From Candidatus Melainabacteria bacterium (GTDB taxonomy: Bacteria; Cyanobacteriota; Vampirovibrionia; LMEP-6097): DNA of 64,000 nucleotides. Positions 17,706 to 35,986 of this stretch are shown here, piece after piece. Every line of letters starts with the position of its first letter. The stretch's first letter is position 1. A program made the position numbers and the translations under genes. The notes below the pieces were generated by a model that saw only the letters and a program-made list of their open reading frames with translations, made no database searches and was not told where the DNA came from. Location of the stretch: NCBI GenBank assembly GCA_005110385.1, contig DUDT01000012.1, forward strand, positions 84,600 through 148,599, given 5' to 3'.

Positions 17706-18173
17706 TTGCAGAAGGAATATCTTGAATTGTCAAAAACTGAAAAAGACCTAGGTCTTAAAATATTAATGGATCTTAGGAGGATCACGCGTGCGATAGATCT
17801 TAATTCTAAAAAACTATCTTCTGAGACCAGTCTAACAGCACCGCAGGTAGTATCTTTAATTGCAGTTTATCATCACGGGGTACTCACTTTAGCAGAGATA
17901 GCAGAACAAGTGCATTTAAGCTCTAGTACGATGGTTGGCATTATAGACAGGCTTGAAGCTAAAAATTTAGTAATAAGGGAAAGATCTAAAACTGATAGAA
18001 GACAGGTGCTTATTCGTATCACAGATGAAGGTCAGAAAATGGCGAAGAAATCACCATTACCTTTACAGGAAGAGCTTATTAAATCACTCAGCAAGCTACC
18101 AGAAGCACAGCAGAGAAATTTAGCTAAAGCTTTAGAGTTATTAGTGAAAATGCTTGATTTTAAAGATAGTTAA
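17706..18173 (+). CDS. MarR family transcriptional regulator
   Basis: Winged-helix region LTLAEIAEQVHLSSSTMVGIIDRLEAKNLVIRERSKTDRRQVLIRITDEG. Confidence 0.8.
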   Translation: MQKEYLELSKTEKDLGLKILMDLRRITRAIDLNSKKLSSETSLTAPQVVSLIAVYHHGVLTLAEIAEQVHLSSSTMVGIIDRLEAKNLVIRERSKTDRRQVLIRITDEGQKMAKKSPLPLQEELIKSLSKLPEAQQRNLAKALELLVKMLDFKDS

Positions 18174-18688
18174 GCGAGATCTTTTGATGATAATTCTAGC
18201 TTAACTAAATGCTTAACACCATCATTAACTACCCCATCCCCTATGATAATTTCCCCATCCAGCTCAATCGTCCTTCTCTCGCTTGAAACTATATTCTGTG
18301 TATCTGTCTCCAGTACATGCTTTAATGACGTCTGTTTATTGTGAACAGTAATTTCATAACTACTAGATTCATGCTGGTAGTAAATAGTAAAACCATCCCA
18401 GTAGTCTGGAATACAGGGATTAAGTTTTAAAATATTATTTTCGACTGTAAGACCAAGAATCCATTCGATACCAGCTTTATACATCCAAGCCGCTGAGCCA
18501 GTGTACCAGCTCCAGTCACCGCGGCCAGTATGTGGTGCTTCTGAATATACATCTCCAGCCATTACATAAGGCTCAAGTTTATATTTATGGGCGCCTAATC
18601 GCGTATTGCTGTGATTGATTGGATTTAACATGCTGAAACATTCATGAGCTTTTTTCGCATTACGGCACTGTTGCTTAATTAAAATCAC
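18170..18688 (-). pseudogene. C-terminal remnant of a GH94/GT36-type glycoside phosphorylase or cyclic glucan synthase-like gene
   Basis: GRGDWSWYTGSAAWMYKAGIEWILGL motif normally sits near the C-terminus of 800+ aa GH94 enzymes; only ~170 codons remain, and they abut an IS. Confidence 0.55.
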
Positions 18689-18808
18689 AGAAAGGAGTTA
18701 ATGGGAAATGAGGAAAAAGGCTTCAAGTATTGAGTTTGCAGCTCATTAGATTTAATGTTTTATTGATAAGTCAGTAAAAGAGAGGGTTTCAGGCGCAAAT
18801 ATTCCAAA

Positions 18809-19372
18809 TTAGGATACACGTATCCCTAAGAAGCTGAGATGGTCATATATATTTACAAGGGTTTTAAGATTTTGGGATATAGCGTCAAGTGTTTGGTGGA
18901 AAGTAACTTTAGTTAGTCCTCTAAAATATCTGACAGATTGATCTGCATAATGAAAAAGTCCTTCGAAAGGCGATCTTCTTTTAGTTAGCCATAAATCAAG
19001 GTTTTTATTTTTATCTTTGCGATTATTTTTTTTAATAACACCAGAATGAAGCTCTTTATCTGAAAGTGCTTGAAGGAAGTCAGCGGTATCGTAGCCTTTA
19101 TCTGCAAATATCATTCCAAGCGGCGAAAGTACTTTTACCCCAAGCTGTGCATCAGTAAGATTGGCTGGGGAAACATCTATTCCAGTAATCATCCCGTGTT
19201 TCATATCTACAGCCTGAGTTCTTTTGTAGCCGTACCAAAATTTAGAACCGTCTTTACAGCCAATCTTTGCATAAGGGTCTGCAGAATATTTTTCAATATT
19301 TGAATTATTAAGAGTTTTCTGTTTATCTTCTATAGCTTTATCTCGAGCTTCCCAGATATTAGATTTACTCAC
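18809..19372 (-). CDS. IS5-family DDE transposase, C-terminal part (frame stays open upstream to ~19432 without a start)
   Basis: FIDATAV just upstream in the same frame (first catalytic Asp context), DKGYDTADF (second Asp) and a C-terminal E-containing region. Confidence 0.7.
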   Translation of the reverse strand: MSKSNIWEARDKAIEDKQKTLNNSNIEKYSADPYAKIGCKDGSKFWYGYKRTQAVDMKHGMITGIDVSPANLTDAQLGVKVLSPLGMIFADKGYDTADFLQALSDKELHSGVIKKNNRKDKNKNLDLWLTKRRSPFEGLFHYADQSVRYFRGLTKVTFHQTLDAISQNLKTLVNIYDHLSFLGIRVS

Positions 19373-19385
19373 TACTGCTGTAGCA

Positions 19386-19721
19386 TCAATGAAGGTAAAT
19401 GTATCTGAAATTATATTTTGTTTTCTTATGTTCTGTTAGGCGAAATCCACAAAAATATTTTGCACAAACATTTTCTTTAAGAAATCTTTCCATCTCTCTG
19501 TCTGAATGATTTTCAGCTTGCTGCAAAACTAACATTTTCAAAGCAGATTCTACGGGATATGCTTTTTTCCCTGAATTGCTTGAATAAATCGATTTAATTC
19601 CCTTTGCTAATGACTCAAAATCTACTAGTTTTAATAGTTTCCTATATGCATGATCTTTTGGAACTAAATTCTCTAAAAGCTCCGAATGAAAATCTAATTG
19701 AAAAGACTCGTTACTAAACAT
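19386..19721 (-). CDS. IS5-family transposase, N-terminal (InsH/DUF772-like) part
   Basis: LVPKDHAYRKLLKLVDF and YFCGFRL motifs typical of the transposase N-terminal domain; ends one frame away from the DDE part. Confidence 0.65.
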   Translation of the reverse strand: MFSNESFQLDFHSELLENLVPKDHAYRKLLKLVDFESLAKGIKSIYSSNSGKKAYPVESALKMLVLQQAENHSDREMERFLKENVCAKYFCGFRLTEHKKTKYNFRYIYLH

Positions 19722-19896: not shown

Positions 19897-22341
19897 TTGA
19901 TATATTCTCTTGAGAGTTGTCCAAGGGGTATCCTAATGTCTAAATCTCTTTCTAATGTAAATATTAATAAACCATTTACGCAAGATAATGCTAGAACTGG
20001 TAAGGGCGAGAATACTGCTGATCAGGCTTCAAGAAAAGATACTTCGAAACGTGCTTCTGCAGTGAGAGACTCGATCATTAATAACAATAATAGTAAAAAC
20101 TCGACTATTTATGCAGGCAGAGGCGATGATGTAATTAATAACAACAATAGTGAAAACTCGACTATTTACGCAGGCAGAGGCGATGATGTAATTAATAACA
20201 ACAATAGTGAAAACGAGACTATTTATGCAGGCAGAGGCGATGATGTAATTAATAATAACAATAGTGAAAACTCGACTATTTATGCAGGCAGAGGCGATGA
20301 TGTAATTAATACGGATACTTTAGGAAGTAATACTATTAAGGCTGGTCGAGGCGATGATGTTGTCAATGTATCAGTAGAGATGGGGTCAAGAACTAATCCT
20401 AATGGAACTTTGACTATAAACGGTGGTGCTGGTCATGATAAAGTCATTCTCTCGGGGAAAAGGGAAGATTATGAGATTGATAAAAAAGGTAATTATGTCC
20501 ATATCGATACAGGTTCTCGAATTAAGATTAATGATGATGTAGAAGAAGTCAAGTTCCAAGAAGCAAGTACAAACAATTCAGCGAGTACTACTAGTCGAAC
20601 CAATCAGGGTAAGATAAAGGCTTTGCAGCAAGGTCTGGATAAATATTTTGATGTTTTAAATACGTCGGCGGGCGAAGCCACTTTAATACAAGATCCAGAT
20701 GCTCTGACTGCGGCAAGACAGAATGCTGAGTTTACTAAACAATATAAATCAGATTTTACTAATGTTTGGGATAAAAACAAAGATGGTAGTTTAGATACTA
20801 CCGAGGTCACTCAATTTGGGTGGAAAGCTGAGGATTGGAATAAACATGTACTTAAGCATGATAAGAGTGGTGATGGGAAATTAAATTTTGATGAACTTCT
20901 AGGTGTTTGGAGGGAGTTTGATACGGATAAGAGTGGTAAATTGGAAGGCACTGCTACCACTGGCGAGATGGGAGTTTACGTGCGCGGTGATTATAAGAAA
21001 ATCTCTTCACAAGATCCAGATGCTCTGACTGCGGCAAGACAGAATGCTGAGTTTACTAAACAATATAAATCAGATTTTACTAAAGTTTGGGATAAAAACA
21101 AAGATGGTAGTTTAAATACTACCGAGGTCACTTCATTTGGGTGGAAAGCTGAGGATTGGAATAAACATGTACTTGAGCACGATAAGAGTGGTGATGGGAA
21201 ATTAAATTTTGATGAACTTCTAGGTGTTTGGAGAGAGTTTGATACTGATAAGAGTGGTAAATTGGAAGGTGTATTTGGAAAGGATGCCACTACTACCACT
21301 GGCGAGATGGGAGTTTACTGGCGCGGTGATTATGATAGTACAATGTCGCTCACATCAAGGCTTGATAAAATGGGCAATGAACTTAAAAAAATTGGTCCCA
21401 TAAAAATGAATTACGATGATTTCGTTGGTGCAAATGAAGGCGCATTTTCTCCAGTCACATATGCCGCTCGAACCGATTCTCTACAGCAACTGAGTTCAGA
21501 TGTCTTAGTAGACCTTGAAAATCAAATGTCAGCAGCTTTAGCAATAGATACAGACGCTGGAAGGCAGTCTGTGGCAAATTTAAGGACTGAAATGAAAACA
21601 ACTGCACAGCAGTTTAAACTTGATAATGGGGCATCAGAGCTTATGAATGGTTTGATTAACAAAGTTCAGATAGATTTCGGTAATATTGATAAAGAGCAAG
21701 CTAAAAGTCTTTATCAGATTAATCTAGAGAACCTTGTTGAAGCAGAGGTTAAATATAGTCAGGGTATTGCTACTGGCAATTTCGAAGAAAGAAGAGGAGT
21801 ATTACCTCAAATTACAGCGCTCGGAGAAATGCGAACTACTCAGCATGTAATTAGTGAATTAGAAAGGCAATATGGTTTTAAACGTCAAGATCTACTGCCG
21901 GAAAGGGCACTACAGGCAGAATTTATTGTTGAGTTGAATAATGATGCACTAGCTGATTTAAAGAATCAAATGTCTGAATCTTTAACAATAGATTCAGAGG
22001 CTGGGAGAATATCTTCAGCCGCTCTTAGGATTGAAATTAATCTAGTTAAAAAGGACAAGGATTTTTGGAGTAATAGAGCTGATTACTGGAGTGGTGATGA
22101 TACGTCTGCACCTAAGGTTAATGTAACTGACACAATGCCAGTAAGAGCAGCTCAGGCAGAATTTTTTGTTGAGTTGAATAATGATATACTCTACGATCTA
22201 AACACTCAGATGTCAGCAGCTTTAGCAATAGATACAGAAGCTGGAAGATTATCTGCTGCTTCTTTAAGAACTGAGATTGCTACGACCAAATCTCTATTAG
22301 GTTTTTGGCAGTCTGCAGCTACTTACTGGTCTGGATCTTGA
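19897..22341 (+). CDS. large repetitive putative calcium-binding protein (RTX-like GxGxDxU repeats plus EF-hand-like DxDxDG loops); start may be ATG at 19936
   Basis: 5 x 19-aa INNNNSENSTIYAGRGDDV, 2 x 107-aa units each with DKNKDGSL, DKSGDGKL and DTDKSGKL loops, and 3 C-terminal AEFxVELNND...IDxEAGR repeats. Confidence 0.7.
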   Translation: MIYSLESCPRGILMSKSLSNVNINKPFTQDNARTGKGENTADQASRKDTSKRASAVRDSIINNNNSKNSTIYAGRGDDVINNNNSENSTIYAGRGDDVINNNNSENETIYAGRGDDVINNNNSENSTIYAGRGDDVINTDTLGSNTIKAGRGDDVVNVSVEMGSRTNPNGTLTINGGAGHDKVILSGKREDYEIDKKGNYVHIDTGSRIKINDDVEEVKFQEASTNNSASTTSRTNQGKIKALQQGLDKYFDVLNTSAGEATLIQDPDALTAARQNAEFTKQYKSDFTNVWDKNKDGSLDTTEVTQFGWKAEDWNKHVLKHDKSGDGKLNFDELLGVWREFDTDKSGKLEGTATTGEMGVYVRGDYKKISSQDPDALTAARQNAEFTKQYKSDFTKVWDKNKDGSLNTTEVTSFGWKAEDWNKHVLEHDKSGDGKLNFDELLGVWREFDTDKSGKLEGVFGKDATTTTGEMGVYWRGDYDSTMSLTSRLDKMGNELKKIGPIKMNYDDFVGANEGAFSPVTYAARTDSLQQLSSDVLVDLENQMSAALAIDTDAGRQSVANLRTEMKTTAQQFKLDNGASELMNGLINKVQIDFGNIDKEQAKSLYQINLENLVEAEVKYSQGIATGNFEERRGVLPQITALGEMRTTQHVISELERQYGFKRQDLLPERALQAEFIVELNNDALADLKNQMSESLTIDSEAGRISSAALRIEINLVKKDKDFWSNRADYWSGDDTSAPKVNVTDTMPVRAAQAEFFVELNNDILYDLNTQMSAALAIDTEAGRLSAASLRTEIATTKSLLGFWQSAATYWSGS
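20077..20361 (+). repeat. 57-bp tandem repeat x5 (fifth unit degenerate) inside the CDS
   Basis: Unit starts at 20077, 20134, 20191, 20248 and 20305; near-identical ATTAATAACAACAATAGTGAAAACTCGACTATTTAYGCAGGCAGAGGCGATGATGTA. Confidence 0.9.
20689..21330 (+). repeat. 321-bp tandem duplication inside the CDS
   Basis: CAAGATCCAGATGCTCTGACTGCGGCAAGACAGAATGCTGAG... starts at 20689 and again at 21010, with only scattered substitutions. Confidence 0.9.
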
Positions 22342-23229: not shown

Positions 23230-23695
23230 ATTATTTGGATTATAAAGATTTGAGATGAAAGGTTTTTTGTTGATTTGCCCTAGTTGGGATTTTTCAGGTT
23301 AATTCCTTTTCTTTCGATTGCAACAAATTTAAGGTATTTTACATATAGTTAATTGAGTAAACCATAATTAACTGCGTGTAAAATATAGTTTAGTAGTAAA
23401 TAATTTATTGTAAATCAATTATTTAGTTATAGAGTATAGGATAGATTCTCTGCATCAAGAATCAAAGTTAAAAACCAAGCTAGCTCAATTACTAAGCTCC
23501 TCTAATGACCTTAACGGCACTAAATACCTTACCAAGACTGTATGGCAGGGACAGAGCAGGGTACAGATCTCAGATCCTTACCTCGTGATTTATACGATGT
23601 CGTAGAAATCTATAAAAGAAAAGATTTACTTCCCACTCCTACTGAGCTAAAGCGAGTGCTAACTAAAAAGTGTGAATTTAAAGGCGTGGAATTAC

Positions 23696-24112
23696 TTAAT
23701 TGATCAAATACCGAATATGTCTATAAAATTGACTACTTAAAATGCTGCCTAGCACTGCTCTCTCGACTTCTAGCTCTTTAATGATCTTAATAAAAACATC
23801 TTTTAATTGTATAAGATCGGAGTTAATTATATTCCAAACCAGCTCAGCATCTATGCCTCTGTAATTATGTGAAAAGATATTGCGCATACCGACTATATTA
23901 GTCCAAGATATTTCAGGATGGCGGTCTTTTAGATTGTCGTCTAAGTTTTTAACTTCTTCCCCTATGGCTATTAGTAAATTAGCTGTAGCATTAAAATCTT
24001 TCTGATCATTAGCCCAAAGAAAATCACTATATGATTTATATTCACTAGAATAGATAAGTATTTTTTCTATAGCTTCTAGTATAGTAAGGCTAGATATAAG
24101 ATTTTTATTCAA
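23696..24112 (-). CDS. hepT: HepT-like (DUF86) toxin of a nucleotidyltransferase-type TA pair
   Basis: RNIFSHNY fits the Rx4HxY HEPN motif; 138 aa; overlaps the upstream MNT gene by 8 nt. Confidence 0.8.
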   Translation of the reverse strand: MNKNLISSLTILEAIEKILIYSSEYKSYSDFLWANDQKDFNATANLLIAIGEEVKNLDDNLKDRHPEISWTNIVGMRNIFSHNYRGIDAELVWNIINSDLIQLKDVFIKIIKELEVERAVLGSILSSQFYRHIRYLIN

Positions 24113-24416
24113 TTATAATCTTCTCCATCTCAATCCCCATCAGGATAATAGGATTTAAAAACTCTGGGTGATAATAGACTAGGTCTATAGGTCGCTTATC
24201 TAATAGCTCAGATAATTCATCTTTAGCATTTATATAATTACTAAGAGTTTTAAATTCAGACGAAAGCTTCACTGCTATATCTATATCGCTGTTTTCATTT
24301 TCAGAATTCTTAGCGAAAGAACCGAATAGCATAATCTCACTAAAGCCATATTTTTCTTTTAGGTAAGGCTTTTTAGTACTTAGTGTTTTTAAGATTTTCT
24401 CTTTAGAGAGAGTCAT
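24105..24416 (-). CDS. mntA: MntA-like minimal nucleotidyltransferase antitoxin
   Basis: LFGSFAKNSENENSDIDIAV fits the GSx(n)DxD nucleotidyltransferase motif; 103 aa. Confidence 0.8.
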   Translation of the reverse strand: MTLSKEKILKTLSTKKPYLKEKYGFSEIMLFGSFAKNSENENSDIDIAVKLSSEFKTLSNYINAKDELSELLDKRPIDLVYYHPEFLNPIILMGIEMEKIIIE

Positions 24417-24474
24417 AAATTAATTTTACCACTTCATAAAAACACCTTATGCCCTATACCAAAAACTTGGGTAA

Positions 24475-25316
24475 GGCTCTTTACTTGCCGGGTGCTTTTC
24501 CGCACTCGACTTTTACAGATAAGATTAATGTTTCAATCATCAAGGCAACAATTAAAAACAAAAAAGCTAAACCGCAAGGGTCTAGCTTTTTCGTTTGCAT
24601 AAATGGTGCGCCTGGATAGATTTGAACCATCGAAGCAACCAGTGCGAGTTAAAGTCTCTAGTCCGCCACCAATCGGGATTCTTTAGATGTAAAAGCTTCG
24701 CTTTTACGGCGGGGTGCTTTTCCGCACTCGACTTTTACGGACAAGATGAATGTTTCAATCATCAAGGCAACGATTAAAAACAAAAAAGCTAAACCGCAAG
24801 GGTCTAGCTTTTTTGTTTGCATAAATGGTGCGCCTGGATAGATTTGAACCATCGAAGCAACCAGTGCGAGTTAAAGTCTCTAGTCCGCCACCAATCGGGA
24901 TTCTTTAGATGTAAAAGCTTCGCTTTTACTTGCCGAGTGCTTTTCCGCACTCGACTTTTACGGACAAGATGAATGTTTCAATCATCAAGGCAACGATTAA
25001 AAACAAAAAAGCTAAACCGCAAGGGTCTAGCTTTTTTGTTTGCATAAATGGTGCGCCTGGATAGATTTGAACCATCGAAGCAACCAGTGCGAGTTAAAGT
25101 CTCTAGTCCGCCACCAATCGGGATTCTTTAGATGTAAAAGCTTCGCTTTTACTTGCCGAGTGCTTTTCCGCACTCGACTTTTACGGACAAGATGAATGTT
25201 TCAATCATCAAGGCAACGATTAAAAACAAAAAAGCTAAACCGCAAGGGTCTAGCTTTTTTGTTTGCATAAATGGTGCGCCTGGATAGATTTGAACCATCG
25301 ACCAATCGGTTAAAAG
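24475..25316. repeat. 222/223-bp tandem array (about 3.8 units); each unit begins with the 3'-terminal 30 nt of tRNA-Lys (45 nt in the last copy)
   Basis: TGGTGCGCCTGGATAGATTTGAACCATCGA at 24604, 24826, 25049 and 25272; units are near-identical and each contains three hairpins. Confidence 0.9.
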
Positions 25317-25415
25317 GTAAGTCCCCCAAAGCCATTATAGGCTTATAACCTAGCTTTCAAGCTTTCAGATAACCTAAATTTCTTGCGTCTTGCGCCTTGA
25401 ATAAAGGAGTAAGAA

Positions 25416-26531
25416 ATGAACTATTTAAGCACCCTTGAGGTCTCTAAAGATTTAGGAATTCCTAAGCGAACTGTGCAAAGCTACTGTAAAGAAGGTTTTT
25501 TACCTGCATTAGTTAGTTTAAATAAAGGGAAGCCTTGCTATAAAATTGAAGCTCATAGCTATCTGAACTGGAAAAATAAAAATTTCAAAGGTATCAAAAG
25601 AGGTAAATTTAGTAAGCATACTTCTAGCGACAGAGAGATAGTTATAGATGATCTGAAAAGCCTAGCTCAAATCTGGTTAGAGTGGTGTGCTTCAGGTAAG
25701 CTTACAGGTAAACCACTAGGTAAACGAACTATAGAGATTTATGAATATTACTTCACTCTTTATATAAAGGGTTTAGGGAAGTATCCTTCTAAGCCTTTAA
25801 TTTCAGTAGATAATCTTCGTAATGTGCTTGGCTCTTATCAGCCACAGAACTACAGCACTAAGAGAAATATCTACGATGCGATTATGAGTTTTACTAAATA
25901 TTTAATTGAGTTAGATAAATTCAGCCCAGAGATTCGTAATAAGTTAAAAGCACTAAAACCTAAGAGATATTTACCAGCTAAAAAAACTTCACTTAATGAA
26001 ACTCAATTAAAGACTATGATAGCCGCCTGTAATGAAATGAAAACTAATTACTATGGAAGGTTAAGTAATAAAGTGATAGTAGTTTTCCTTGCTAATACTG
26101 GTCTTAGAGCCTTTGAGTTTTGTAAGCTCAAGCTAGAGGATATAAACCTAGAAGCTAAAAGAGTATATGTAAGACTAGGGAAAGGTAATAAACCACGTGA
26201 AATAGGTATTAATACTGAGACCTATGAATTACTACTAGAATATCTTAAAGCTAGGCTTTCTTTTGATTCTGAATATTTTTTCTTAAATAAAGATGGAAAA
26301 CCCTTTACAGTAGATAGACTGAATAAGAAAATATCAGGATTAGCTAATAAATTAGGCTTTAAAGGGATAAGCCCGCATAGCCTTAGAAGGTCCTTCGTAA
26401 CTATAAATGCTGCGAAAGGCAGACCATTAAACCATCTTAGGATAGCTTGCGGTCATGCTGATTTAAGCACTACTCAAGGCTACTGTATGACTAGCGTTGA
26501 TGAGGTCGTAGCTGCTATGAGGGAGTGGTAG
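25416..26531 (+). CDS. int: tyrosine recombinase / phage-type integrase
   Basis: TGLRAFEFCKLKLEDI (Arg I), HSLRRSF (HxxR), GHADLSTTQGY (His-Tyr); N-terminal HTH-like MerR/excisionase-type segment. Confidence 0.85.
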   Translation: MNYLSTLEVSKDLGIPKRTVQSYCKEGFLPALVSLNKGKPCYKIEAHSYLNWKNKNFKGIKRGKFSKHTSSDREIVIDDLKSLAQIWLEWCASGKLTGKPLGKRTIEIYEYYFTLYIKGLGKYPSKPLISVDNLRNVLGSYQPQNYSTKRNIYDAIMSFTKYLIELDKFSPEIRNKLKALKPKRYLPAKKTSLNETQLKTMIAACNEMKTNYYGRLSNKVIVVFLANTGLRAFEFCKLKLEDINLEAKRVYVRLGKGNKPREIGINTETYELLLEYLKARLSFDSEYFFLNKDGKPFTVDRLNKKISGLANKLGFKGISPHSLRRSFVTINAAKGRPLNHLRIACGHADLSTTQGYCMTSVDEVVAAMREW

Positions 26532-26540
26532 GATTAAATT

Positions 26541-27341
26541 ATGGAAAATAAGAGAACATATTTTTTTGTTGATGAATCTGGAGATCTCTCTCGGTTTGAC
26601 AAGAAAGGTCGCTCATTATTAGGTGTAGAGGGAGTTTCAAAAACTTTTATGCTTGGCTCACTAGAAGTCTTAGAACCCATAGAGGAAATTATCAAGAAGA
26701 TGGAAGAGCTAAGAGCAGACCTGATTAAAGATCCGTGTCTATTGAGAACACCCTCTTTAAAGAAAACTAAGTTATGTTTCCATGCTAAAGATGATTGTGC
26801 TGCTGTTAGAAGAGAAATGTTTAAGATTCTTAAGGATATGAAAGCTAGGGTTAGAGTAATGGTTCGCCGTAAATCTGAGCTAATAAGATTATCTAAGCAT
26901 TCTTTTGAACTGAATAAAGTAAAAGTGTCAGAAGCAACTATCTATTCTTCTATGGTTTCACGCTTATTTAAGCCACTGTTACACAAAAATTCATATAACC
27001 ATATTTTATTTTCCCAACGAGGGAAAACCTTTAATACCGAGTCTCTTCAAAAGGCTATAGAAATAGCTAAGGATAACTGTTACCATGACTGGGGAATTAA
27101 AAACGATAATATTATTACGATAGAGCATTCTAGCCCTAGTAATCATATAGGTTTGCAGATTGTTGATTACTATCTCTGGGCATTAAGCCGCTTATATGAA
27201 CAAGATGATGATTCATACTTCAATTATTTAAGAGATAAATATAGTTTGATCTGGGATCTGGATGATAAAACAAAAAAAGACTGTGGGGTCTATTACACAC
27301 AGAAAAACCCAATATCGTTAGAAAAAATAAAAGAGCTGTAG
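26541..27341 (+). CDS. DUF3800-like protein
   Basis: N-terminal YFFVDESGD and later QIVDYYLWAL resemble DUF3800; starts 9 bp after the integrase stop. Confidence 0.55.
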   Translation: MENKRTYFFVDESGDLSRFDKKGRSLLGVEGVSKTFMLGSLEVLEPIEEIIKKMEELRADLIKDPCLLRTPSLKKTKLCFHAKDDCAAVRREMFKILKDMKARVRVMVRRKSELIRLSKHSFELNKVKVSEATIYSSMVSRLFKPLLHKNSYNHILFSQRGKTFNTESLQKAIEIAKDNCYHDWGIKNDNIITIEHSSPSNHIGLQIVDYYLWALSRLYEQDDDSYFNYLRDKYSLIWDLDDKTKKDCGVYYTQKNPISLEKIKEL

Positions 27342-27783
27342 GCTAGGTTCGAGTGTCAGTGACTCTCTTACACACGGCACGAGGCCGACGTTCACCTACA
27401 ATATGTATAGTACCACATTATGCGAAGTTTTAAACATGAAATTACAGTCTAGGTAAGGATGAATAAGCATATATAGTACAAATCTGAAAAAGGTTTTTAT
27501 ATCGCTCGGGCATTTATGCGTTTTTAGAAAAAGTCACGTAAGCAGCACAAGCAAAGCCTATTAGGTTAAAAGTAAAAAAGAATGTCAAGATAGCAGCTTC
27601 TGGAGACATATACATTAATTTACTACAATAAAATTTCTAATTAAAGTTACTTGCCCCAAGGGGGGCTTTTATATTTCTTATGCATTGGCTCTCGCTACTT
27701 GGGGGATTTTGAGGTTTTGCTGTAAAGCTTCGATTGTGTCCGTGATTTTATTTGATAATTCAAAAGATATGAGAGCTAACTTA

Positions 27784-28137
27784 TTAAAACCTTGGTCCAA
27801 TAAATCTAAGAACTGAAAAACGCAACAAAGAGATAACGAACCAGAACCCCCAAATATAAAAATATATTGGCTCAGCTGCTGATAAGCTTACACCATTGAT
27901 TAACTTATAAACAAATGGATAAATTAAGGGAGTAAACTCTATAAATGGAATAAACATCGCAATAAATAAAACAGGGGTAGATATAATATATTTCCAAAAG
28001 CTCGTAATGCCTAAAACATTTTCACAAAAATCACCACTTAAGGTTATTGCTAAAATAAAAACCAAAAATGCAGAGATTTGATAACATAATGAAACCAAGC
28101 TAAGTAAAATATTAAAAGCAATTTTCATAGCTAACAA
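27784..28137 (-). CDS. small integral membrane protein, unknown function
   Basis: 117 aa with about 4 hydrophobic helices. Confidence 0.5.
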   Translation of the reverse strand: MLAMKIAFNILLSLVSLCYQISAFLVFILAITLSGDFCENVLGITSFWKYIISTPVLFIAMFIPFIEFTPLIYPFVYKLINGVSLSAAEPIYFYIWGFWFVISLLRFSVLRFIGPRF

Positions 28138-28200
28138 TTCTAGCCTAAATCTCTTAAGTGAAAAACATTTTTAAGTAGTAAGCCCTGTAAAATTGAATCA

Positions 28201-28470
28201 ATGCTTAGCCTATTCTCCTTACCCTTTTTATTACTAGCTCTATTCTTACCTTTCCCTTATGCCTACTATACTCTACTAAGATTTTTAGTAACTGCTAATT
28301 CTTTATGGCTATTACAGAAGATCTCAGTAAGTGAGGCTCATAGGTTTACTCTTCTCGCAATCGCTGTATTGTACAATCCTTTGATCCCTGTTCATCTGAA
28401 TAAGCCTATATGGAACGTGATTAATTTTTTGACTATATTGTATTTTGTTTATATTGGTTATAAGAAATAA
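28201..28470 (+). CDS. small integral membrane protein, unknown function
   Basis: 89 aa with about 3 hydrophobic helices; divergent from the 27784-28137 gene. Confidence 0.5.
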   Translation: MLSLFSLPFLLLALFLPFPYAYYTLLRFLVTANSLWLLQKISVSEAHRFTLLAIAVLYNPLIPVHLNKPIWNVINFLTILYFVYIGYKK

Positions 28471-28667
28471 AATTCACTTTTATCAATTTCAGGCTTATAA
28501 GTTGCTTAGTACGAATTTATAGATCTTGTGTGTAATTTTGGCAAGCAAGATCCTTTACAGGAAAGGTTTTTAGTGAAATTTGCTGCTGATTATTTTCTCT
28601 GTGTTCTATGTGTTTCCTCTCTCGTGATTTATTATGATGAGTATTAGATATAATCTGATTATTCATC

Positions 28668-29315
28668 ATGAGAATTTTAAGCTGTTTATTAATCTTATGT
28701 ATTTTTTTGAGTGCATCATGCTCTAAGCCTATTAATCCTGCTGAGAAGTTCTACAATAAAGGACGTTTAGCTTATTCAAAAAAAAATTATAAGGAAGCTT
28801 TTGAGTACTATAAAAAAGCTGCTGAATTAGGTGATGCTAAGGGAATGAAAAATTTAGCAAGAATGTATTTTTTGGGAGAATATGCAAAAGAGAATTATAG
28901 CGAATGTTTTAAATGGCTCAAAAGATCCGCTGAGTTAAGAGATCCTGATGCAATGTTTATTTTGGGGCTTTTTCATTATTACGGTTGGAAACCTGTTATT
29001 CAAGATCATGGAGAAGCTATTAAGTGGTTTAAACAATCAGCTGAGTTAGGTGATGATGAGGCAATGATGTATTTAGGAAGCATCTACTATGTTACTCAAG
29101 AGAATAATAAAGCTTTCAAGTACTATAAAAAGGCCGCTGAATTAGGTAACGCTAAGGCAATGTATGAGTTAGGGAATATGTATTATTTAGGAGATGGAGT
29201 ACTATGGAAAGATCCTAAAAAAGCTAAATACTGGATAAAAAAAGCTTACGAAGCTGGTAATAAAGATGCAGAAAAGGCTTGGAATTCTCTGGCATTATGG
29301 AGTGCGAGACTCTGA
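28668..29315 (+). CDS. Sel1-repeat (SLR) lipoprotein
   Basis: Lipobox LSASC, then about five repeats of the form A..W(F/Y)KKAAELGD..AM..LG.MY..G. Confidence 0.85.
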   Translation: MRILSCLLILCIFLSASCSKPINPAEKFYNKGRLAYSKKNYKEAFEYYKKAAELGDAKGMKNLARMYFLGEYAKENYSECFKWLKRSAELRDPDAMFILGLFHYYGWKPVIQDHGEAIKWFKQSAELGDDEAMMYLGSIYYVTQENNKAFKYYKKAAELGNAKAMYELGNMYYLGDGVLWKDPKKAKYWIKKAYEAGNKDAEKAWNSLALWSARL

Positions 29316-29465
29316 AGATAGTAAAATGCCCTAGAGAACAGTCTAGAGTTGTGGAAGTGTTAATTAACCTTAAGCTCTGTGCCGCCAGTCTGAGATTAAG
29401 ATTCAGGTAAATGAAAATATTGATTTGGTACACTTACAAATCTTTGTGACAGGCGTTTAAGAGTT

Positions 29466-29924
29466 TTACTCCTTTTTTACAACTACACATCCTGATAAAA
29501 GATCGTGCAAGCACTGTTTTTTATTGCTAAAGAAAAATAATATATAACCAATAAAGATGGTTAAAATATTAAGCCAGTTCAAGAAATATCTTAGACTTGC
29601 TGTAGCAAAACAAACCTGTGAACCATCTAAACTCAATATTTTAATTCGTAATATTCTCTGTCCAATTGTGGATTGGTTTTTACCACTTTGTAGCAGACCA
29701 TAGTAAAACCAAGCAATTACAAGACCTAGCATGTTCCATTGACTTTCGCTGAATTCTATACCGCTGACAATTTTGACAATTACTAATGGAATGACGACTA
29801 GCGAGAAACATAAAACGGCTATAATGATAAGATCAATTAATCTGGCTCCTAGCCTCTCTAAAAATGAAGCAAGCTGATATTCCGTAACCTCATTCTCATT
29901 CTCTATAGTTATAATTTTGTTCAT
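29466..29924 (-). CDS. RDD family membrane protein
   Basis: RLGARLIDLIII, three helices and a C-terminal HDLLSGCVVV, typical of the RDD domain. Confidence 0.65.
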   Translation of the reverse strand: MNKIITIENENEVTEYQLASFLERLGARLIDLIIIAVLCFSLVVIPLVIVKIVSGIEFSESQWNMLGLVIAWFYYGLLQSGKNQSTIGQRILRIKILSLDGSQVCFATASLRYFLNWLNILTIFIGYILFFFSNKKQCLHDLLSGCVVVKKE

Positions 29925-30107
29925 ATTAACAAAGACAGAGCTTAACCATTTCAGCTTATGTTTATGAGCTAAACGCTTCCTGATCCTATCATATTTCCCT
30001 GTAGCCTATGTATTCACCCCATAATTACCTACTGAATGGCGACATATTCCCACCCCTATAAGTTGTAAGTCGTAAAATTTAATAACTGACAACTGACAAA
30101 GCCCCCC

Positions 30108-31619
30108 TCATTTTTGCATTAACCTAACTAAAATCGTAGGTTCTCCATTATTTGATTTATTTTTCTCTTGCCTCAAATCAATTACTTTTAGGTCTCTGAG
30201 TGTATCTAAAGCTAAATTAAATTGCTCACGATTGCGGTCATAGCCTCTCAGGCTATTAGCTAAGCTATTAATTTTGACTTCATAGTCTTTTTTATCACGA
30301 AGTTTATTAACGATTTTTACAGCCATATTAAGCACGCTAGAGAGTTCACGATTGTTTAAAAATTTAATCGTAGTATCTTCAATGTATTGGACTAAGGTTT
30401 CAGCTTGAGTTAAGGTCTCAATAGAAATTAATCGAGAATCTCTAAAGCTGGATTCTAGGCAATGTAAAATCCCTGCGATTTTAAATAAAGCTTCTCGCCA
30501 ATAACGATCAAGGCAGCTTATCAAGACATCGTTATAACAAAATTTATTTTTTTTATATTTATAATCTTCAAAAATCACCTGCTCATAATGCTGCGTTGCT
30601 TCATTATCTAGTTTCAAAGTGATATTACTAGTGCTATATAAGCCAAAGCTCCACAAATCAATTAGCGTATGTTTTATCGGATCTAAGTTTAAGAGTTTTT
30701 TATTTCGCCTAGGGAAAGCTATAGGAGGTTTAGAGTTACTGCAATCTATCAAATTCAGTCTAGCAAAGAATCCTGAGCCTAGATCTTCATCACTTAAATT
30801 ATTAGATAAGCTCTTCGTAGTTATTGGACCTAAAATGGAAATTAAAGCTTTATTCGGTAAATTTAAGTTTTTGCTGCTCTTGTAACTTACTAAATTATTG
30901 GAAATATTTCCACCGTATAAGCTAATGAGTAACTCTTTTAGAGCAGGTACTTCCTTGACTTTTTTTAACATTATTGAGATTTCTTCATCTGTCGCCATCA
31001 ATCCATAGCTCATACCATCACTGAGCATCTCAATGATTCTCTCTAAGCTGGTAACTAAAGGGAAACTAATCATTTCATTAACTGGTGCTTTGGGTTCTTC
31101 CATCTCTTCGCCCTTTTCCTCAGCCTTTAGGAATTTTTTCATTTCTCGGTTATAGTGTTTCAGGTCTTTAGCATATTTTTCTTTAACTGGATTCTCTAGC
31201 TCTCGAATTAAATCTAATACAGGCTTAGCTCCAGTACTTTTACCACAGCCACTAGGTCCTATAGGAAGTATCCAAGTATTTAAAAATAGATCTGAGCTTG
31301 GACCTTCGACTATGACTTTATCTCTTAAGAAGGAACCAGCTATAGAGATAATTGGAAAAACAATAGCAGCGTTTGCAATTTGTGTTATAGAGTCTTCTCT
31401 GTCTAGAAGAGCTTTTAAGCATGGAGCTAATGCTTCTTTCTCTAGATTTAAAGCATTTTCCAAAGTTAGTGAAGCTATTTTTTGATTTATTTCATGTTCA
31501 CTGAAAAGCTTATTCTCAAGCGGGTTTAGAGCTTGTTTTTCTAGCTCTTGGATATATTTTCTTCTATCTCCTTCACTAAGTTTATTCATTTGATCATCGA
31601 TCCCTGATTTTTCCGACAT
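30108..31619 (-). CDS. P-loop NTPase, DUF3987/YfjI-like (mobile-element replicative helicase-like)
   Basis: Walker A GPSGCGKST, Walker-B-like LMATDE; 503 aa; adjacent to a Toprim-like gene. Confidence 0.55.
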   Translation of the reverse strand: MSEKSGIDDQMNKLSEGDRRKYIQELEKQALNPLENKLFSEHEINQKIASLTLENALNLEKEALAPCLKALLDREDSITQIANAAIVFPIISIAGSFLRDKVIVEGPSSDLFLNTWILPIGPSGCGKSTGAKPVLDLIRELENPVKEKYAKDLKHYNREMKKFLKAEEKGEEMEEPKAPVNEMISFPLVTSLERIIEMLSDGMSYGLMATDEEISIMLKKVKEVPALKELLISLYGGNISNNLVSYKSSKNLNLPNKALISILGPITTKSLSNNLSDEDLGSGFFARLNLIDCSNSKPPIAFPRRNKKLLNLDPIKHTLIDLWSFGLYSTSNITLKLDNEATQHYEQVIFEDYKYKKNKFCYNDVLISCLDRYWREALFKIAGILHCLESSFRDSRLISIETLTQAETLVQYIEDTTIKFLNNRELSSVLNMAVKIVNKLRDKKDYEVKINSLANSLRGYDRNREQFNLALDTLRDLKVIDLRQEKNKSNNGEPTILVRLMQK

Positions 31620-31630
31620 AAATACTCCTT

Positions 31631-32275
31631 TTAAATTGTCATCTCTTTGGGTCTTGCACCTGCTCTATATAAAAATATTGAAAACTCATCTAAGGCTTTT
31701 CGCACATTAGGCTTGGTTTTGATATCATCATCAAATAATAAAAATACTGTTCTATTCTCTAAAACGAAGCATGATAGATCTTTCTTGAAGTCTTCAGAAC
31801 ACCAGCCCCATACACCTGGTATGGAGATGACAGCTTTACCAAGACTCGCTAAGCATGAAGCTTTCTTCTCACCTTCAGTGAAAATGATTGGAATTGAAGA
31901 ATCTTTCATGACTTCCTGCCAGCGTGCAAACTCTAAGAATGGATAAAAGGGAACTAGAGGGACACCTTTTTTCTGATGATATTTGATTTCAAAAGGTTGC
32001 TTAAGATTTTTGTGGCGATAAAATCGAATCCTGTAGCTTACGGGGTCTAGCATTGGAACTTGCCAGCCCCAGAAATCATCTTCTTGATAGCCGTCTAGAG
32101 CTATTCGTTTCATAGATAAACCTGAATTGAATAATTCTCTTAAGATATACGTGGCTGAGATTCTTGAATAGACAAGTCTTTCAATCTCTTTTTCATTTAG
32201 AGATGAAATATCAATAATGGTTTTATTAAATTTATTATTCATAGTATTTTCTTTTATTGCCTGTAACTCATACAT
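31631..32275 (-). CDS. DUF3854/Toprim-like protein
   Basis: PIIFTEGEKKASCLAS (TEGxxKA) and FLLFDDD acidic motif. Confidence 0.5.
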   Translation of the reverse strand: MYELQAIKENTMNNKFNKTIIDISSLNEKEIERLVYSRISATYILRELFNSGLSMKRIALDGYQEDDFWGWQVPMLDPVSYRIRFYRHKNLKQPFEIKYHQKKGVPLVPFYPFLEFARWQEVMKDSSIPIIFTEGEKKASCLASLGKAVISIPGVWGWCSEDFKKDLSCFVLENRTVFLLFDDDIKTKPNVRKALDEFSIFLYRAGARPKEMTI

Positions 32276-32428
32276 GTACGTGTTTCACTAATCCTTTCCT
32301 TGAAAGGTTTTAGATTGTTTCTAAAATAAAATTTGCTATAATGAAGCTACTCAATTTTCAAACAGCAATCTAGGGCAGCTTTAGCTGCCTTTTGATTAAG
32401 AAGAGTCTAGTTTATAAATCATTCCTAA

Positions 32429-33375
32429 TTACCATTCCTTTTGACTCTCTAAGACCTCTTCGAGGCATGGGTTCACATAACTTTGTGTGGTTAATATACT
32501 TTGATGCCCTGCGATCATTTGCAGGTAAGGCATAGGTGCGCCCTTGCTTGCATAATGGGTAAGGCAGCCCCTTCGGAGGCTATGCCATGAACCAGAAAGC
32601 CCAGCTTTTTGAGTAAGTACCTTAAGCCTTTTCTCTAAGCGGTCCCGCTTTAATGGTCTGCCATCTGGTAATAAAAATAATTTATCTTCATTCATCGTTT
32701 CTACCTCTCATTTCAATATAGTTTTTTAAATCCTCTTTTAAAGCCTTATTAATGGCTACCCAGCGATTTTTACCGCCCTTACCGTTAAATATAAGAATTT
32801 TCCCTTCATCAAGAAAAACATCACCGAGATTTAAATTACAAATTTCCGAGACCCGAAGCCCAGTATAAAAAGCGAATTTTAAAAGAATCTCATTTAAATT
32901 CTTTGATGCTTGATTAGTTTTAAGTCTCTGATTGGCTTCTAATAGTAGATTTAATTCTTTCTCTCTAAAAGTAGGTCTGCGTATATCTTTATGGCGTTTG
33001 ATTTTTATACTTCTTAATCGCTCAAGAATATTATCGCTATCTCTAAGCATTGAATACCCCCTGTCTTATTAAAAACTTTGCTAAGCTAATAGCCGCTTCT
33101 TTACAGTGTTTACGGCTAGAAAATTGTTCGGGTTTATGAGCTTCTATAGCTTGAACTGTAGCCTCGTATAGATTAGAATAATCTGCTTCTAATAAATGCC
33201 AGATTTTATTCATCGCATTTAAATAGATGCGTATGCAGTCAAAGCTAATAGCTCTGCCGTATGGTTGTGAGCCATTTTGCATGGCAGCCACCCAGCTATA
33301 TACGATTTCTTGGTACTGCTCTGGTACTTTCTTCAAAAGATTTCCATAAGCGTGGCTAGTTAATGACTTGGTCAT
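32429..33375 (-). pseudogene. tyrosine recombinase split into three ORFs by two frameshifts
   Basis: 33375-33043 N-terminal SAM-like domain; 33050-32688 YTGLRVSEICNL (Arg I); 32695-32429 HSLRRGC and GHQSILTTQSY. Both junctions are 8-nt overlaps (ATGCTTAG, ATGAATGA). Confidence 0.75.
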
Positions 33376-33753
33376 ATCTTTATTTCCTATTTATATTAGG
33401 GGGTTACTCAGCCTTTGCTAAATGCCCCGCTAATCTATTTGTATTATATTGGCTTATTTTCAAAGCCCTTAATTCCATAAGCGTTGCTGGTTAATGACTT
33501 GGTCATATCTTCATTTCCTATTCTTGGCTTATTATAGTCTCTACTTTTTAATTAAATCGCAGAATAGGTATTGATGTGTAAAACATTAAAGCTCTTACAG
33601 TAGCTATATGGCCTCTGAGTAGAAAAGGTGCTTTATCTGCCTCTTACCCATAATCAAATTCTAACAGGGCTAATAAAGCTAGAGATACTAGGTATAATCT
33701 AAGAAGGTGAAGCGCAAGACGCAAGTTTTTTCACCTTCTGGAATCTTTATAAA

Positions 33754-33828
33754 TGGTGCGCCTGGATAGATTTGAACCATCGACCAATCGGTTAAAAGCC
33801 GAGTGCTCTACCGCTGAGCTACAGGCGC
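33754..33828 (-). tRNA. tRNA-Lys (anticodon UUU)
   Basis: Reverse complement GCGCCTG-TA-GCTC-AGCGGTA-GAGC-A-CTCGG-CTTTTAA-CCGAT-TGGTC-GATGG-TTCAAAT-CTATC-CAGGCGC-A-CCA folds as a cloverleaf. Confidence 0.92.
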
Positions 33829-34057
33829 TCATACAAATAGTTAATATATCATAAGTTCAAGCCTTATTTTAAAGCCAAGCTTTTTTTTATATTAATTTCA
33901 AAATCTATTCTTATTAATAAGGAAGACTGTTACGGAAAATTCTCTATTGAAAATTTTTGGGGAAAAATGACCCCTTAAAATTTTCCATTCTAAAGTTTAT
34001 TATAAAAACCCTAGTTAAATATTCTGAGTTCCAATCACAAAGGGGTTTATAGAAAAA

Positions 34058-35986
34058 ATGAATAAGATGAGAAATAGAGATGGCTGGGGAGGAAGGATTC
34101 GAACCCTCGAATGGCGGGACCAAAACCCACTGCCTTACCACTTGGCGACTCCCCAAAAATTTGAACATAATAATAATACTTTATTTTTTGGATTCCTGTC
34201 ACTTGGCTTCTTAATTTTTTTATGTTTCACTTTTAATAAAGCGGCAGCACAGCTGCCACCAAGCTTGTCTATTTTAGAGCTGAATAGGCGAAGAGTGGTT
34301 AATGCTAGTTTGAGTCCGCTAACGGCGGTTCTAGCTACAGATGAGCAATTGATTTATTCTCTGAACAGTAGGATTTTTGTAGATGAATCTTCACTGCCAA
34401 ATATTAATCTTCTAGATGAAAATGAGAGCTTTAAAGTAAATCGTATTTATCAAAATGCTACTGATATCTATTTCGCAACTAATGTGGGGCTGATTAGGAA
34501 TCAGCAGCGAATATTTACCAAAACTGGGGTTAATGATATTAGTTTTACTAAAGATAAAATTTATCTAAGTACGGATCTCGGGCTTTATGCTTCTGATATT
34601 TCGTCTCTACGCTGGGAGCTTGTAACTAAGGCAAATCTGCGGATTCTACAATGCAAACCTTCACTTAAATCTAAGAACCTTTTTTATTTACTCACGGTAA
34701 ATGGTTTTTATACTTTTAATTCTAAAAAGAATCTTGTGGTGAAAGTTAATCAGGGATTAGTGTTTAATTCTGATTCTGAATTAAAGGGGCGGCTCGAAAT
34801 TTTAAAACACAAGCAGCTTAAGGAAGAGCTGATTTATCTTGCTTTAAATAATGCTGTTTATAAGCTTGATGGTGCTAAAAAAAGCTGGCGTCGTTTAACT
34901 GACAAGGGTTTGGTTTTTGATCAAGATTCGCAGATGCAGGTGGTGGATATTTTCTATAAAGATGATTATTTATTTTTGGTTGCGAGTACTGGATTGTTTT
35001 ACGCTAAGTTAGGCTTAGGAAATGAAGTCACAGAGTGGCATAAGGTGAGTTCGGCGGAATTTAATTTAGATGAAAATTTTTTAGAAGGTTTTACTGCTTC
35101 TAGTTTTTCTAAGCAAGATAAAAGCATCTCTTTGTTTATAGGTAATTTTAGAGGCGATTTATATCAGCTCAGGCTTGGAGATTCAGGGCATGACCTAGAA
35201 ATTAGGGATGGACAGCAGTCCTCTGTGGCTCTCCTTGAGCCGATTGCATTGTCGTCAGCTCTAAATAAGGATCATGAGATTAAGAGTGAAGAAAAAACGA
35301 CTCAAGATATTATAAGTCCTAGTGAAAAGCCTGATGCGTTAGATTCGAAGGAGAAATTAAAGCTGATTTTTTCTTTAGAACCCACTATTCAAGAGACTCA
35401 AACTAAGGCTCTTCAGTTTTCGGGGATTCCTTCTGGGATGCAGTTTGGGGCTTATAAGCGGCAGGCTCGTTTAAGGAATGTTCTGCCACAGATCGATACA
35501 TCTTTCGATAATTCTGATTATGCTCTAAGTAGCTTAGAGACTCGTGGTTCAGACCAGTATGATTCGGCTGATAGTAGTATAAATAGTTCTTTAGATAAAA
35601 ATCGCAAAGCTTCTGCTGATAATGAGTTTAATACAGGCTTTCGCTTTACTTGGCATTTAGATCGTTTAATATATGATCCAGAGATTATAGACATAGTAAA
35701 TAGCGCAAGAGTTTCAGCGAATATTCGTGAAAACCTTCTTACTGAGCTAACTCAGATTTATTTCCAGAGGAAAAATCTTTTATCTGAGCTTATATCTAAT
35801 CCCTTCTCTAGGACTATGACTCAGAAGTTTAAATTGCAGGAACTTACTGCTGATATAGATGCTAGAACGGGTGGCTGGTACAGTCTTGCCTTGAGAAGTC
35901 GATTCAGGGAGGCTGCTGCGCGAAACACAGTGAGTGATTTGGAAAAAATATTAGAGGAGCTAGATATTAACTATGAAAATATTTAA
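34058..35986 (+). CDS. secreted repeat (beta-propeller-like) protein; true start uncertain because the first ~98 nt overlap tRNA-Gln
   Basis: Signal-peptide-like LFFGFLSLGFLIFLCFTFNKAAAQ begins just after the tRNA; recurring IYxxTxxGLY-type blades; 642-codon ORF. Confidence 0.55.
   Translation: MNKMRNRDGWGGRIRTLEWRDQNPLPYHLATPQKFEHNNNTLFFGFLSLGFLIFLCFTFNKAAAQLPPSLSILELNRRRVVNASLSPLTAVLATDEQLIYSLNSRIFVDESSLPNINLLDENESFKVNRIYQNATDIYFATNVGLIRNQQRIFTKTGVNDISFTKDKIYLSTDLGLYASDISSLRWELVTKANLRILQCKPSLKSKNLFYLLTVNGFYTFNSKKNLVVKVNQGLVFNSDSELKGRLEILKHKQLKEELIYLALNNAVYKLDGAKKSWRRLTDKGLVFDQDSQMQVVDIFYKDDYLFLVASTGLFYAKLGLGNEVTEWHKVSSAEFNLDENFLEGFTASSFSKQDKSISLFIGNFRGDLYQLRLGDSGHDLEIRDGQQSSVALLEPIALSSALNKDHEIKSEEKTTQDIISPSEKPDALDSKEKLKLIFSLEPTIQETQTKALQFSGIPSGMQFGAYKRQARLRNVLPQIDTSFDNSDYALSSLETRGSDQYDSADSSINSSLDKNRKASADNEFNTGFRFTWHLDRLIYDPEIIDIVNSARVSANIRENLLTELTQIYFQRKNLLSELISNPFSRTMTQKFKLQELTADIDARTGGWYSLALRSRFREAAARNTVSDLEKILEELDINYENI
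34081..34155 (-). tRNA. tRNA-Gln (anticodon UUG)
   Basis: Reverse complement TGGGGAG-TC-GCC-AAGTGGTAA-GGC-A-GTGGG-TTTTGGT-CCCGC-CATTC-GAGGG-TTCGAAT-CCTTC-CTCCCCA-G-CCA; has the U1-A72 pair typical of tRNA-Gln. Confidence 0.9.

Follow-up and report, generated by a model that had tools for sequence, protein, structure and literature searches.

A tandem array of 222/223-bp units carrying the tRNA-Lys 3' end in Candidatus Melainabacteria, probably an amplified relic of site-specific integration

Beside a genomic island integrated at tRNA-Lys, a Candidatus Melainabacteria contig (DUDT01000012.1) carries a tandem array of short units, each of which contains the 3' end of the tRNA. We consider it probable that this array arose by tandem amplification of a non-coding relic that site-specific integration left at tRNA-Lys; its units lack an integrase and are flanked by att copies. 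The units were most likely expanded, contracted and shuffled by unequal homologous, possibly integrase-mediated, recombination. Rather than a gene, the array is probably a landing-pad by-product, either neutral or mildly useful. Coordinates refer to the window, i.e. the whole 64,000-nt stretch that was analysed (contig positions 84,600 to 148,599, forward strand), unless a comparison locus (L number) is named.

Tandem Repeats Finder reported a single array at 24480-25301, with a period of 223, 3.7 copies, 98% matches and a score of 1574. Together with the attachment site, a 45-nt repeat of tRNA-Lys, it occupies 24480-25316, and it is made up of three units of 222/223 bp plus a partial copy of 124 nt. 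The 30-mer TGGTGCGCCTGGATAGATTTGAACCATCGA is found exactly at 24604, 24826, 25049, 25272 and 33754 (0 expected in 100 shuffles). These results bear out the tandem units with a tRNA-Lys 3' end described in the initial annotation, which was also correct in limiting the 45-nt identity and the closure of the island to the last copy: 25272-25316 is identical to 33754-33798 over 45 nt, from the anticodon loop to the CCA. Read in tRNA sense (from high to low coordinates), the order is tRNA-Lys, island, att45, unit A, unit A, unit B, X0 and MNT-HepT. The features are listed below, where att30, R and X are the three parts of a unit, given by their plus-strand positions.

23696-24112 (HepT) and 24105-24416 (MNT), minus strand: MNT-HepT toxin-antitoxin pair, chromosomal flank adjoining the array
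24480..24603, minus strand: X0, terminal partial copy, 124 nt, equal to the sequence directly 3' of tRNA-Lys in L004
24604..24825, minus strand: unit of subtype B, 222 bp (att30 24604-24633; R 24634-24702; X 24703-24825), variant U7, also present in L015, L035 and L036
24826..25048, minus strand: unit of subtype A, 223 bp (att30 24826-24855; R 24856-24924; X 24925-25048), variant U0, with 12 occurrences in 8 sequences (7 loci and the window)
25049..25271, minus strand: unit of subtype A, 223 bp (att30 25049-25078; R 25079-25147; X 25148-25271), with its tRNA-sense terminator hairpin at 25224-25264
25272..25316, minus strand: att45, the island's distal att (attR), direct repeat of the 3' part of tRNA-Lys
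25317..33753, no strand assigned: integrated island, 8,482 bp from att copy to att copy, absent from L004
25416..26531, plus strand: intact tyrosine integrase, 371 aa, transcribed away from the array
32429..33375, minus strand: second integrase, adjacent to the tRNA, in three overlapping ORFs of 110, 120 and 88 aa
33754..33828, minus strand: tRNA-Lys(UUU), identified by ARAGORN and Rfam, of which 33754-33798 is the proximal att copy (attL)

In tRNA sense, a unit consists of X (124 nt), R (69 nt) and att30 (30 nt). The att30 part corresponds to the final 30 nt of the tRNA, starting with two bases of the variable loop and continuing through the T-arm and the acceptor 3' strand to the CCA; exact copies of these 30 nt flank every unit and are themselves part of the island's 45-nt att. 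X starts with TTTATGCAAAC, followed by a strong hairpin and a T-run. Its source can be read from the empty site in L004, where tRNA-Gln and tRNA-Lys are followed at once by X and the MNT gene, without island or unit. Because X stands directly after the tRNA there, X is the tRNA flank of the island-free state, terminator included. The same downstream flank forms X0, which runs from TTTATGCAAAC through the terminator hairpin and intergenic sequence into the MNT gene; X0 differs from the X part of the units at 6 positions and is the end of the array, abutting the chromosomal flank directly. In L029/L030, X continues for 72 nt after the att and then gives way to a different neighbouring gene.

R shows a perfect 8-bp hairpin across the X|R junction and a 9-mer, CCGATTGGT, that is also present in tRNA-Lys. 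Its origin was searched for by blastn-short against all loci and the window and by local alignments to the tRNA and two island right ends, and nothing was found beyond CCGATTGG, the sharing of which between R and the tested sequences has p = 0.06-0.15. R was also likened to the right end of the L005-type island, and this match was judged not significant.

Two of the three units are of subtype A, and the unit nearest to the flank is the 222-bp subtype B, which has clustered changes at the X|R junction and reads GGCGGGGTGC... where the other units read GCCGAGTGC.... A hairpin CGAGTGC/GCACTCG that had been ascribed to each unit is not intact in all of them, since subtype B differs. As for the terminator hairpin, 140 of 140 pair cells are standard on the tRNA-sense strand across 8 unit variants, 11 of them being G.U, and the same 11 cells become A.C mismatches on the opposite strand. 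The "bidirectional terminator" proposed earlier is thus strand-asymmetric. Such conservation fits the terminator of tRNA-Lys, and neither a coding region nor a truly bidirectional terminator.

The island contains genes for an integrase, DUF3800, Sel1-repeat and RDD proteins, a DUF3987 helicase/primase-like protein, DUF3854 and a broken second integrase; the DUF3987 and DUF3854 proteins are of replication type. The 371-aa integrase combines a Phage_integrase domain with an N-terminal HTH_17 match that does not reach Pfam's cut-off; its best scores are with Xer-type models, yet they stay under every curated cut-off. The split of the second integrase is common to all related contigs except L029, in which the first two ORFs are fused (228 aa) and the 88-aa ORF follows. 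Named homologues of the island integrase come exclusively from MAGs of Candidatus Melainabacteria and Caenarcaniphilales, and related islands in other Melainabacteria (53-65% integrase identity) have the same two-integrase layout.

In one metagenome contig (L022/L031; ERZ27271690 k141_31967), the island right end, one 45-nt att and the island left end are continuous and no unit is present, so that the same 45 nt as attR joins both island ends. L031 is 8,623 nt long (8,482 + 141) and begins and ends with the same 141 nt, an overlap that is typical of a circular or tandem template assembled with k = 141. Since the island is closed on itself in this contig, it is probably active. The chromosomal contig from the same sample (L008) breaks inside a unit.

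Attachment sites were also compared within the integrase family, and the identity block begins at the anticodon loop for tRNA-Lys and tRNA-Asn alike. The tRNA-Asn case is L039 (ERZ3430527 NODE_13), which contains a related island with 59% integrase identity and a 46-nt repeat starting at the anticodon loop. Upstream of this tRNA-Asn (20296-20370 of L039), at 20354-20629, lies a 127-bp tandem array with 2.2 copies and 95% identity. Its unit is composed of the first 18 nt of tRNA-Asn (TTCCCGGGTAGCTCAGTG) and 109 nt of other sequence, a mirror image of the tRNA-Lys case.

Relatives of the locus were collected by exact-protein look-ups with MNT, the integrase, DUF3800 and spurious ORFs of the units, which yielded about 35 metagenome contigs (JGI, ENA, Logan). 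As the comparison loci were picked by exact identity of flanking or island proteins, they represent one population and are non-independent samples. The number of units after the island, counted in short-read assemblies and unreliable where adjoining units are identical, is 0 in L016 and L029/L030, 1 in L006, L017/L023 and L036, 2 in L001 (A,A), L015/L028 (A,B) and L021, and 3 in the window (A,A,B). The order varies as well, and in L035 a B unit precedes an A unit.

Islands are found at different att copies. In L002, L003, L014 and L011 (the REEB446 MAG), the order is tRNA, unit, att30, island and att45. The first three of these loci continue after att45 with one more unit, att30 and X0, and the L011 locus stops inside the island. 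R-att30 is fused to the island's left end in L012 and L013 as well. Such a joint of R-att30 to the island left end implies a recombination event that used the att30 of a unit. We further compared three markers read from the alignment of the 8 unit variants, namely column 84, the junction subtype and column 146. All four marker combinations are seen both for column 84 with subtype and for subtype with column 146, which indicates homologous exchange inside the units.

Genome and metagenome collections were scanned for the R|att junction with one exact 26-mer, a probe that diverged relatives would escape. Among species-representative genomes it was found in two MAGs of the same group ("Cyanobacteria bacterium REEB446" and "Vampirovibrionia bacterium Deming_bin.154"), and among metagenome contigs in 1 contig. 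In a viral contig collection, the R|att junction, the sequence Y described below and the island left junction had 0 matches each.

Several unusual joints were observed, those of L013 and L020 being secondary deletion joints of illegitimate type. At 716-916 of L021, the last att30 after two units runs into sequence Y (TTTATAGCTAGCCCTGATCGAAAGATCGGGGC...) and not into X; Y could be a native flank of another kind, or else a third type of island that begins here with its left end. X, the island left end and Y all start with TTTAT (TTTTT in some island copies). In L013 (OGWJ01000963.1), the island right end is fused to the middle of X and att45 is lost. At 997-1160 of L020, X is fused at about nt 122 to a site about 95 nt into the island left end, and this illegitimate joint falls within a few bases of the X|R junction. 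An argument for horizontal origin based on alleles (unit X with "A", terminal X0 with "G", and a nearly identical flank beyond) was set aside for three reasons: the loci had been selected through their identical MNT protein, L004 is diverged to a similar degree in its upstream flank, and in L024 and L027 att45 is followed directly by a G-allele X, though both contigs end within ~95 nt and this X may or may not be terminal.

Elsewhere in the window, an ORF of 814 aa (19897-22341, plus strand) contains a 57-bp in-frame tandem repeat at 20077-20311 (4.1 copies, 94% identity). The matching gene in related contigs (801 aa) has faint Pfam matches to calcium-binding families (HemolysinCabind, EF-hand), and its length ranges from 782 to 802 aa between strains. 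Moreover, the window carries an IS (DUF772 and DDE_Tnp_1 ORFs) and a 172-aa GH94 remnant at 18170-19721 (minus strand), in the place of which L002, L003 and L007 have an intact gene of 2,869 aa with the Pfam domains Glycoamylase, GH94_b-supersand and Glyco_hydro_94.

From the above, a course of events can be proposed. R is probably the right-end remnant of an earlier island, although it matches nothing in the window or the loci beyond the 9-mer shared with the tRNA. Its joint with X probably formed at a shared GTAAA, since the perfect 8-bp hairpin spans the X|R junction, in an illegitimate, microhomology-mediated event that would have duplicated the old attR junction (R-att30-X) once. The earlier island would have been lost later. 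Thereafter the 223-bp repeats could have grown, shrunk and swapped sequence by unequal homologous recombination, possibly with integrase action at the att copies. Each att30 may act as an extra attB, or docking site, for the island, and since a terminator follows each att30, the extra att copies would cost the host little.

One observation speaks against the relic reading. Under the usual rule, the start of the identity block marks the strand-exchange site (Islander classes, PMC4383910), and the identity blocks would place strand exchange in the anticodon loop, which att30 lacks. If exchange occurs there, the att30 junctions could have formed only by RecA-type recombination on as little as 30 bp or through another integrase. 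The R-att30-island junctions require exchange inside the 30 nt. Either the integrase crosses over in the T-loop/acceptor junction region, or RecA-type exchange took place on 30 bp with a multicopy circle.

Parts of this arrangement are known from other systems. Decayed att-flanked elements in tandem with functional ones are an established pattern (PMC5704250), partial tRNAs and remnants occur in tRNA-seeded islands such as the tycheposons of Prochlorococcus (10.1101/2020.12.28.424599), and tandem islands at tDNA have been described in Islander, which rejects intervals <2 kb (PMC4383910).

The closest concept is the CIME with tandem accretion, which had been suggested from the start and is the closer of the two initial readings, although the units differ from it in size, content, uniform amplification and truncated att. 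CIMEs (ICESt1-related, Streptococcus thermophilus) have, like the unit, no integrase or transfer genes, are bounded by att direct repeats, and stand in tandem with a functional element that abuts one att, in arrangements that vary by strain. In accordance with this, the unit is flanked by att copies of the site used by the co-resident element and is gene-less (223 bp, in which the only ORF is not conserved). The number of units varies between assemblies, and they sit on either side of an apparently active island. Accretion is seen in the R-att30 joints to the island left end in all six loci given above. As to content, that of CIMEs is decayed ICE/IME DNA; in the unit, 124 of the 223 bp (X) are a copy of the tRNA downstream flank in L004, and R (69 nt) matches no island compared. 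The loci gave no sign of the suggested mobilisation in trans, the sole circular junction found consisting of the island and one att, without a unit. In addition, the 223-bp unit is present in 2-3 near-identical copies, and its att comprises 30 nt out of the 45-nt repeat of the island. Known CIMEs are generally far longer than 223 bp.

In tycheposons and Islander tandem islands, likewise, repeated integration at one tRNA leaves displaced 3' tRNA fragments, tyrosine recombinase and primase/helicase-type genes are present, and tandem and excised forms coexist in populations. However, their tRNA fragments are separated by kilobase-scale elements or remnants, each with a present or former integrase, while the spacing of our array is a uniform 223 bp and its copies are 98-100% identical. 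Members of an Islander tandem have their own integrase and a tDNA fragment; the unit has the tDNA fragment and no integrase.

Integron cassette arrays are similar in that the integrase is transcribed away from adjacent short modules ending in recombination sites. Here, however, the integrase does not belong to the IntI type (cut-offs of 265 bits for TIGR02249 and 435 for NF011946, reached with 50.7 and 23.2 bits only), the sites are direct tRNA fragments instead of the imperfect attC palindromes, the modules hold no conserved ORF where a cassette usually has one, and units are also found 7.5 kb from the integrase, across the island. The score of the integrase and the kind of recombination site led us to reject the integron reading. 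The pdif modules of Acinetobacter plasmids and other Xer-dependent modules have sites of about 28-30 bp in series; pdif sites are dif-like and of alternating orientation, and pdif modules carry genes. The sites of the units, by contrast, are tRNA-derived chromosomal direct repeats and the modules are gene-less.

Among other explanations of the array, an unlikely one is that the unit is an active integrase-less mini-element. The island integrase would excise it as a 223-bp att circle, alone or with the island, and re-insert it at any att, so that the array would grow by repeated integration and not by unequal crossing-over. The identical att30 bounds, the units on both sides of the island and the circular or tandem junction of the island are consistent with this, and the units of L021 that end in Y could mean a different genomic context. 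Xer-type recombinases generally act on sites of about 30 bp, and models of this type are those against which the integrase scores best. However, neither a unit-only nor an island-plus-unit circular junction was found among the loci, and the closed island contig has one att and no unit. Host flank makes up 124 of the 223 bp, the marker combinations point to homologous exchange within units, and with family identity blocks starting at the anticodon loop att30 may lack the crossover region. Y, of which about 170 nt are at hand, may equally be the left end of a third island type.

It is very unlikely that the unit encodes a small structured RNA on the tRNA-sense strand, with a 3' acceptor-like stem on the T-arm and then the terminator of the next unit, the minihelix of which could be a mimic or decoy for enzymes directed at tRNA 3' ends, e.g. 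the neighbouring HepT RNase. The sense strand of the unit does fold into a more stable structure than shuffled versions of it (-79.9 kcal/mol; z = -6.6, compared with -4.6 on the opposite strand), but the tRNA terminator and the T-arm, both inherited from the tRNA locus, account for most of this energy. In the predicted fold, the R end UGGUUGCUU pairs with AGGCGCACCA beside the T-arm to give an acceptor-like stem; this stem pairs the CCA end, unlike a tRNA acceptor stem, and its columns are invariant in the 8 variants. The one-sided changes in the terminator hairpin keep G.U pairs valid on the sense strand only, yet compensatory changes are absent, with 0 of 70 predicted pairs changed on both sides in the 8 variants and a covariation term of +0.49. 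ARAGORN found only tRNA-Lys and tRNA-Gln, and no tRNA-like gene in the units. An Rfam search of 23500-35000 by E-value gave nothing over full units, the sole match in the array being a chance-level STnc150 (E = 0.09) over X0 at 24430-24597, and a promoter scan found no sigma-70-like site on the sense strand within the units. The MNT-HepT pair adjoins the array, but this adjacency is explained by the empty site, where the gene is next to tRNA-Lys too. An RNA gene was rejected because nothing specific emerged from Rfam, ARAGORN, the promoter scan or the alignment fold, and the structured RNA with a tRNA-like 3' half that had been offered as a second reading has no support.

We regard as extremely improbable that the unit carries a gene for a small membrane peptide (39 aa, MQTKKLDPCGLAFLFLIVALMIETFILSVKVECGKALGK), as in tandem type I toxin-antitoxin loci. 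The 39-aa ORF (39/49 aa) starts 4 nt past each tRNA piece, ends at the X|R junction and has a hydrophobic, transmembrane-like core, and 5 of the 6 differences between X0 and the X of the units are at third codon positions. With more alleles, however, the changes (tallied by eye) are 4 synonymous and 4 non-synonymous, and no sequence resembling a Shine-Dalgarno motif precedes the ATG. When 5.8 billion proteins were searched for homologues, only copies from the same population came back. In the units of L020 and L021 the ORF reads ATG TAA, and one base is lost at the hairpin loop, by which the frame is shifted and the stem pairing kept; in the L005/L007 unit the ATG is lost. Type I toxin-antitoxin loci would have a conserved small hydrophobic ORF in every copy, which these disrupted variants contradict. 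The idea of a small protein or type I toxin was rejected on the same-population homologues and the disrupted variants, by which the membrane-peptide explanation is largely refuted.

Finally, an assembly artefact, with one unit wrongly expanded by the assembler, is scarcely credible: two of the three units in the window are identical, short-read assemblers can miscount repeats and k141 assemblies break at units (L008-L010 begin inside R), but A and B stand in tandem in single contigs of different samples (window, L015, L035), units are present in >15 contigs of JGI, ENA and NCBI assemblies, and the junctions are clean where there is no unit or one unit.

On the relic reading, attachment-site scars can amplify into uniform arrays, and island-finding tools discard them (intervals <2 kb). 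It is a quite doubtful further suggestion that the unit is an att minicircle devoid of genes, excised and re-inserted in trans by the island's Xer-like integrase, which would make it the smallest integrative module known. If this were true, attB sites would multiply at tRNA-Lys and the landing-pad array would let several islands accrete with the tRNA untouched, and the 127-bp array at tRNA-Asn in L039 would be a second Melainabacteria example of the same process.

In this one uncultured freshwater population, a single hotspot is found in many states, i.e. empty, with the island only, with units only beside the tRNA, with units on either side of the island, with islands in tandem, and with the island closed on itself. 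The apparently active island belongs to a two-integrase family that is known from Melainabacteria only, in which few mobile elements have been described. Provided that the extra att copies work, a tRNA locus could accommodate a different number of elements.
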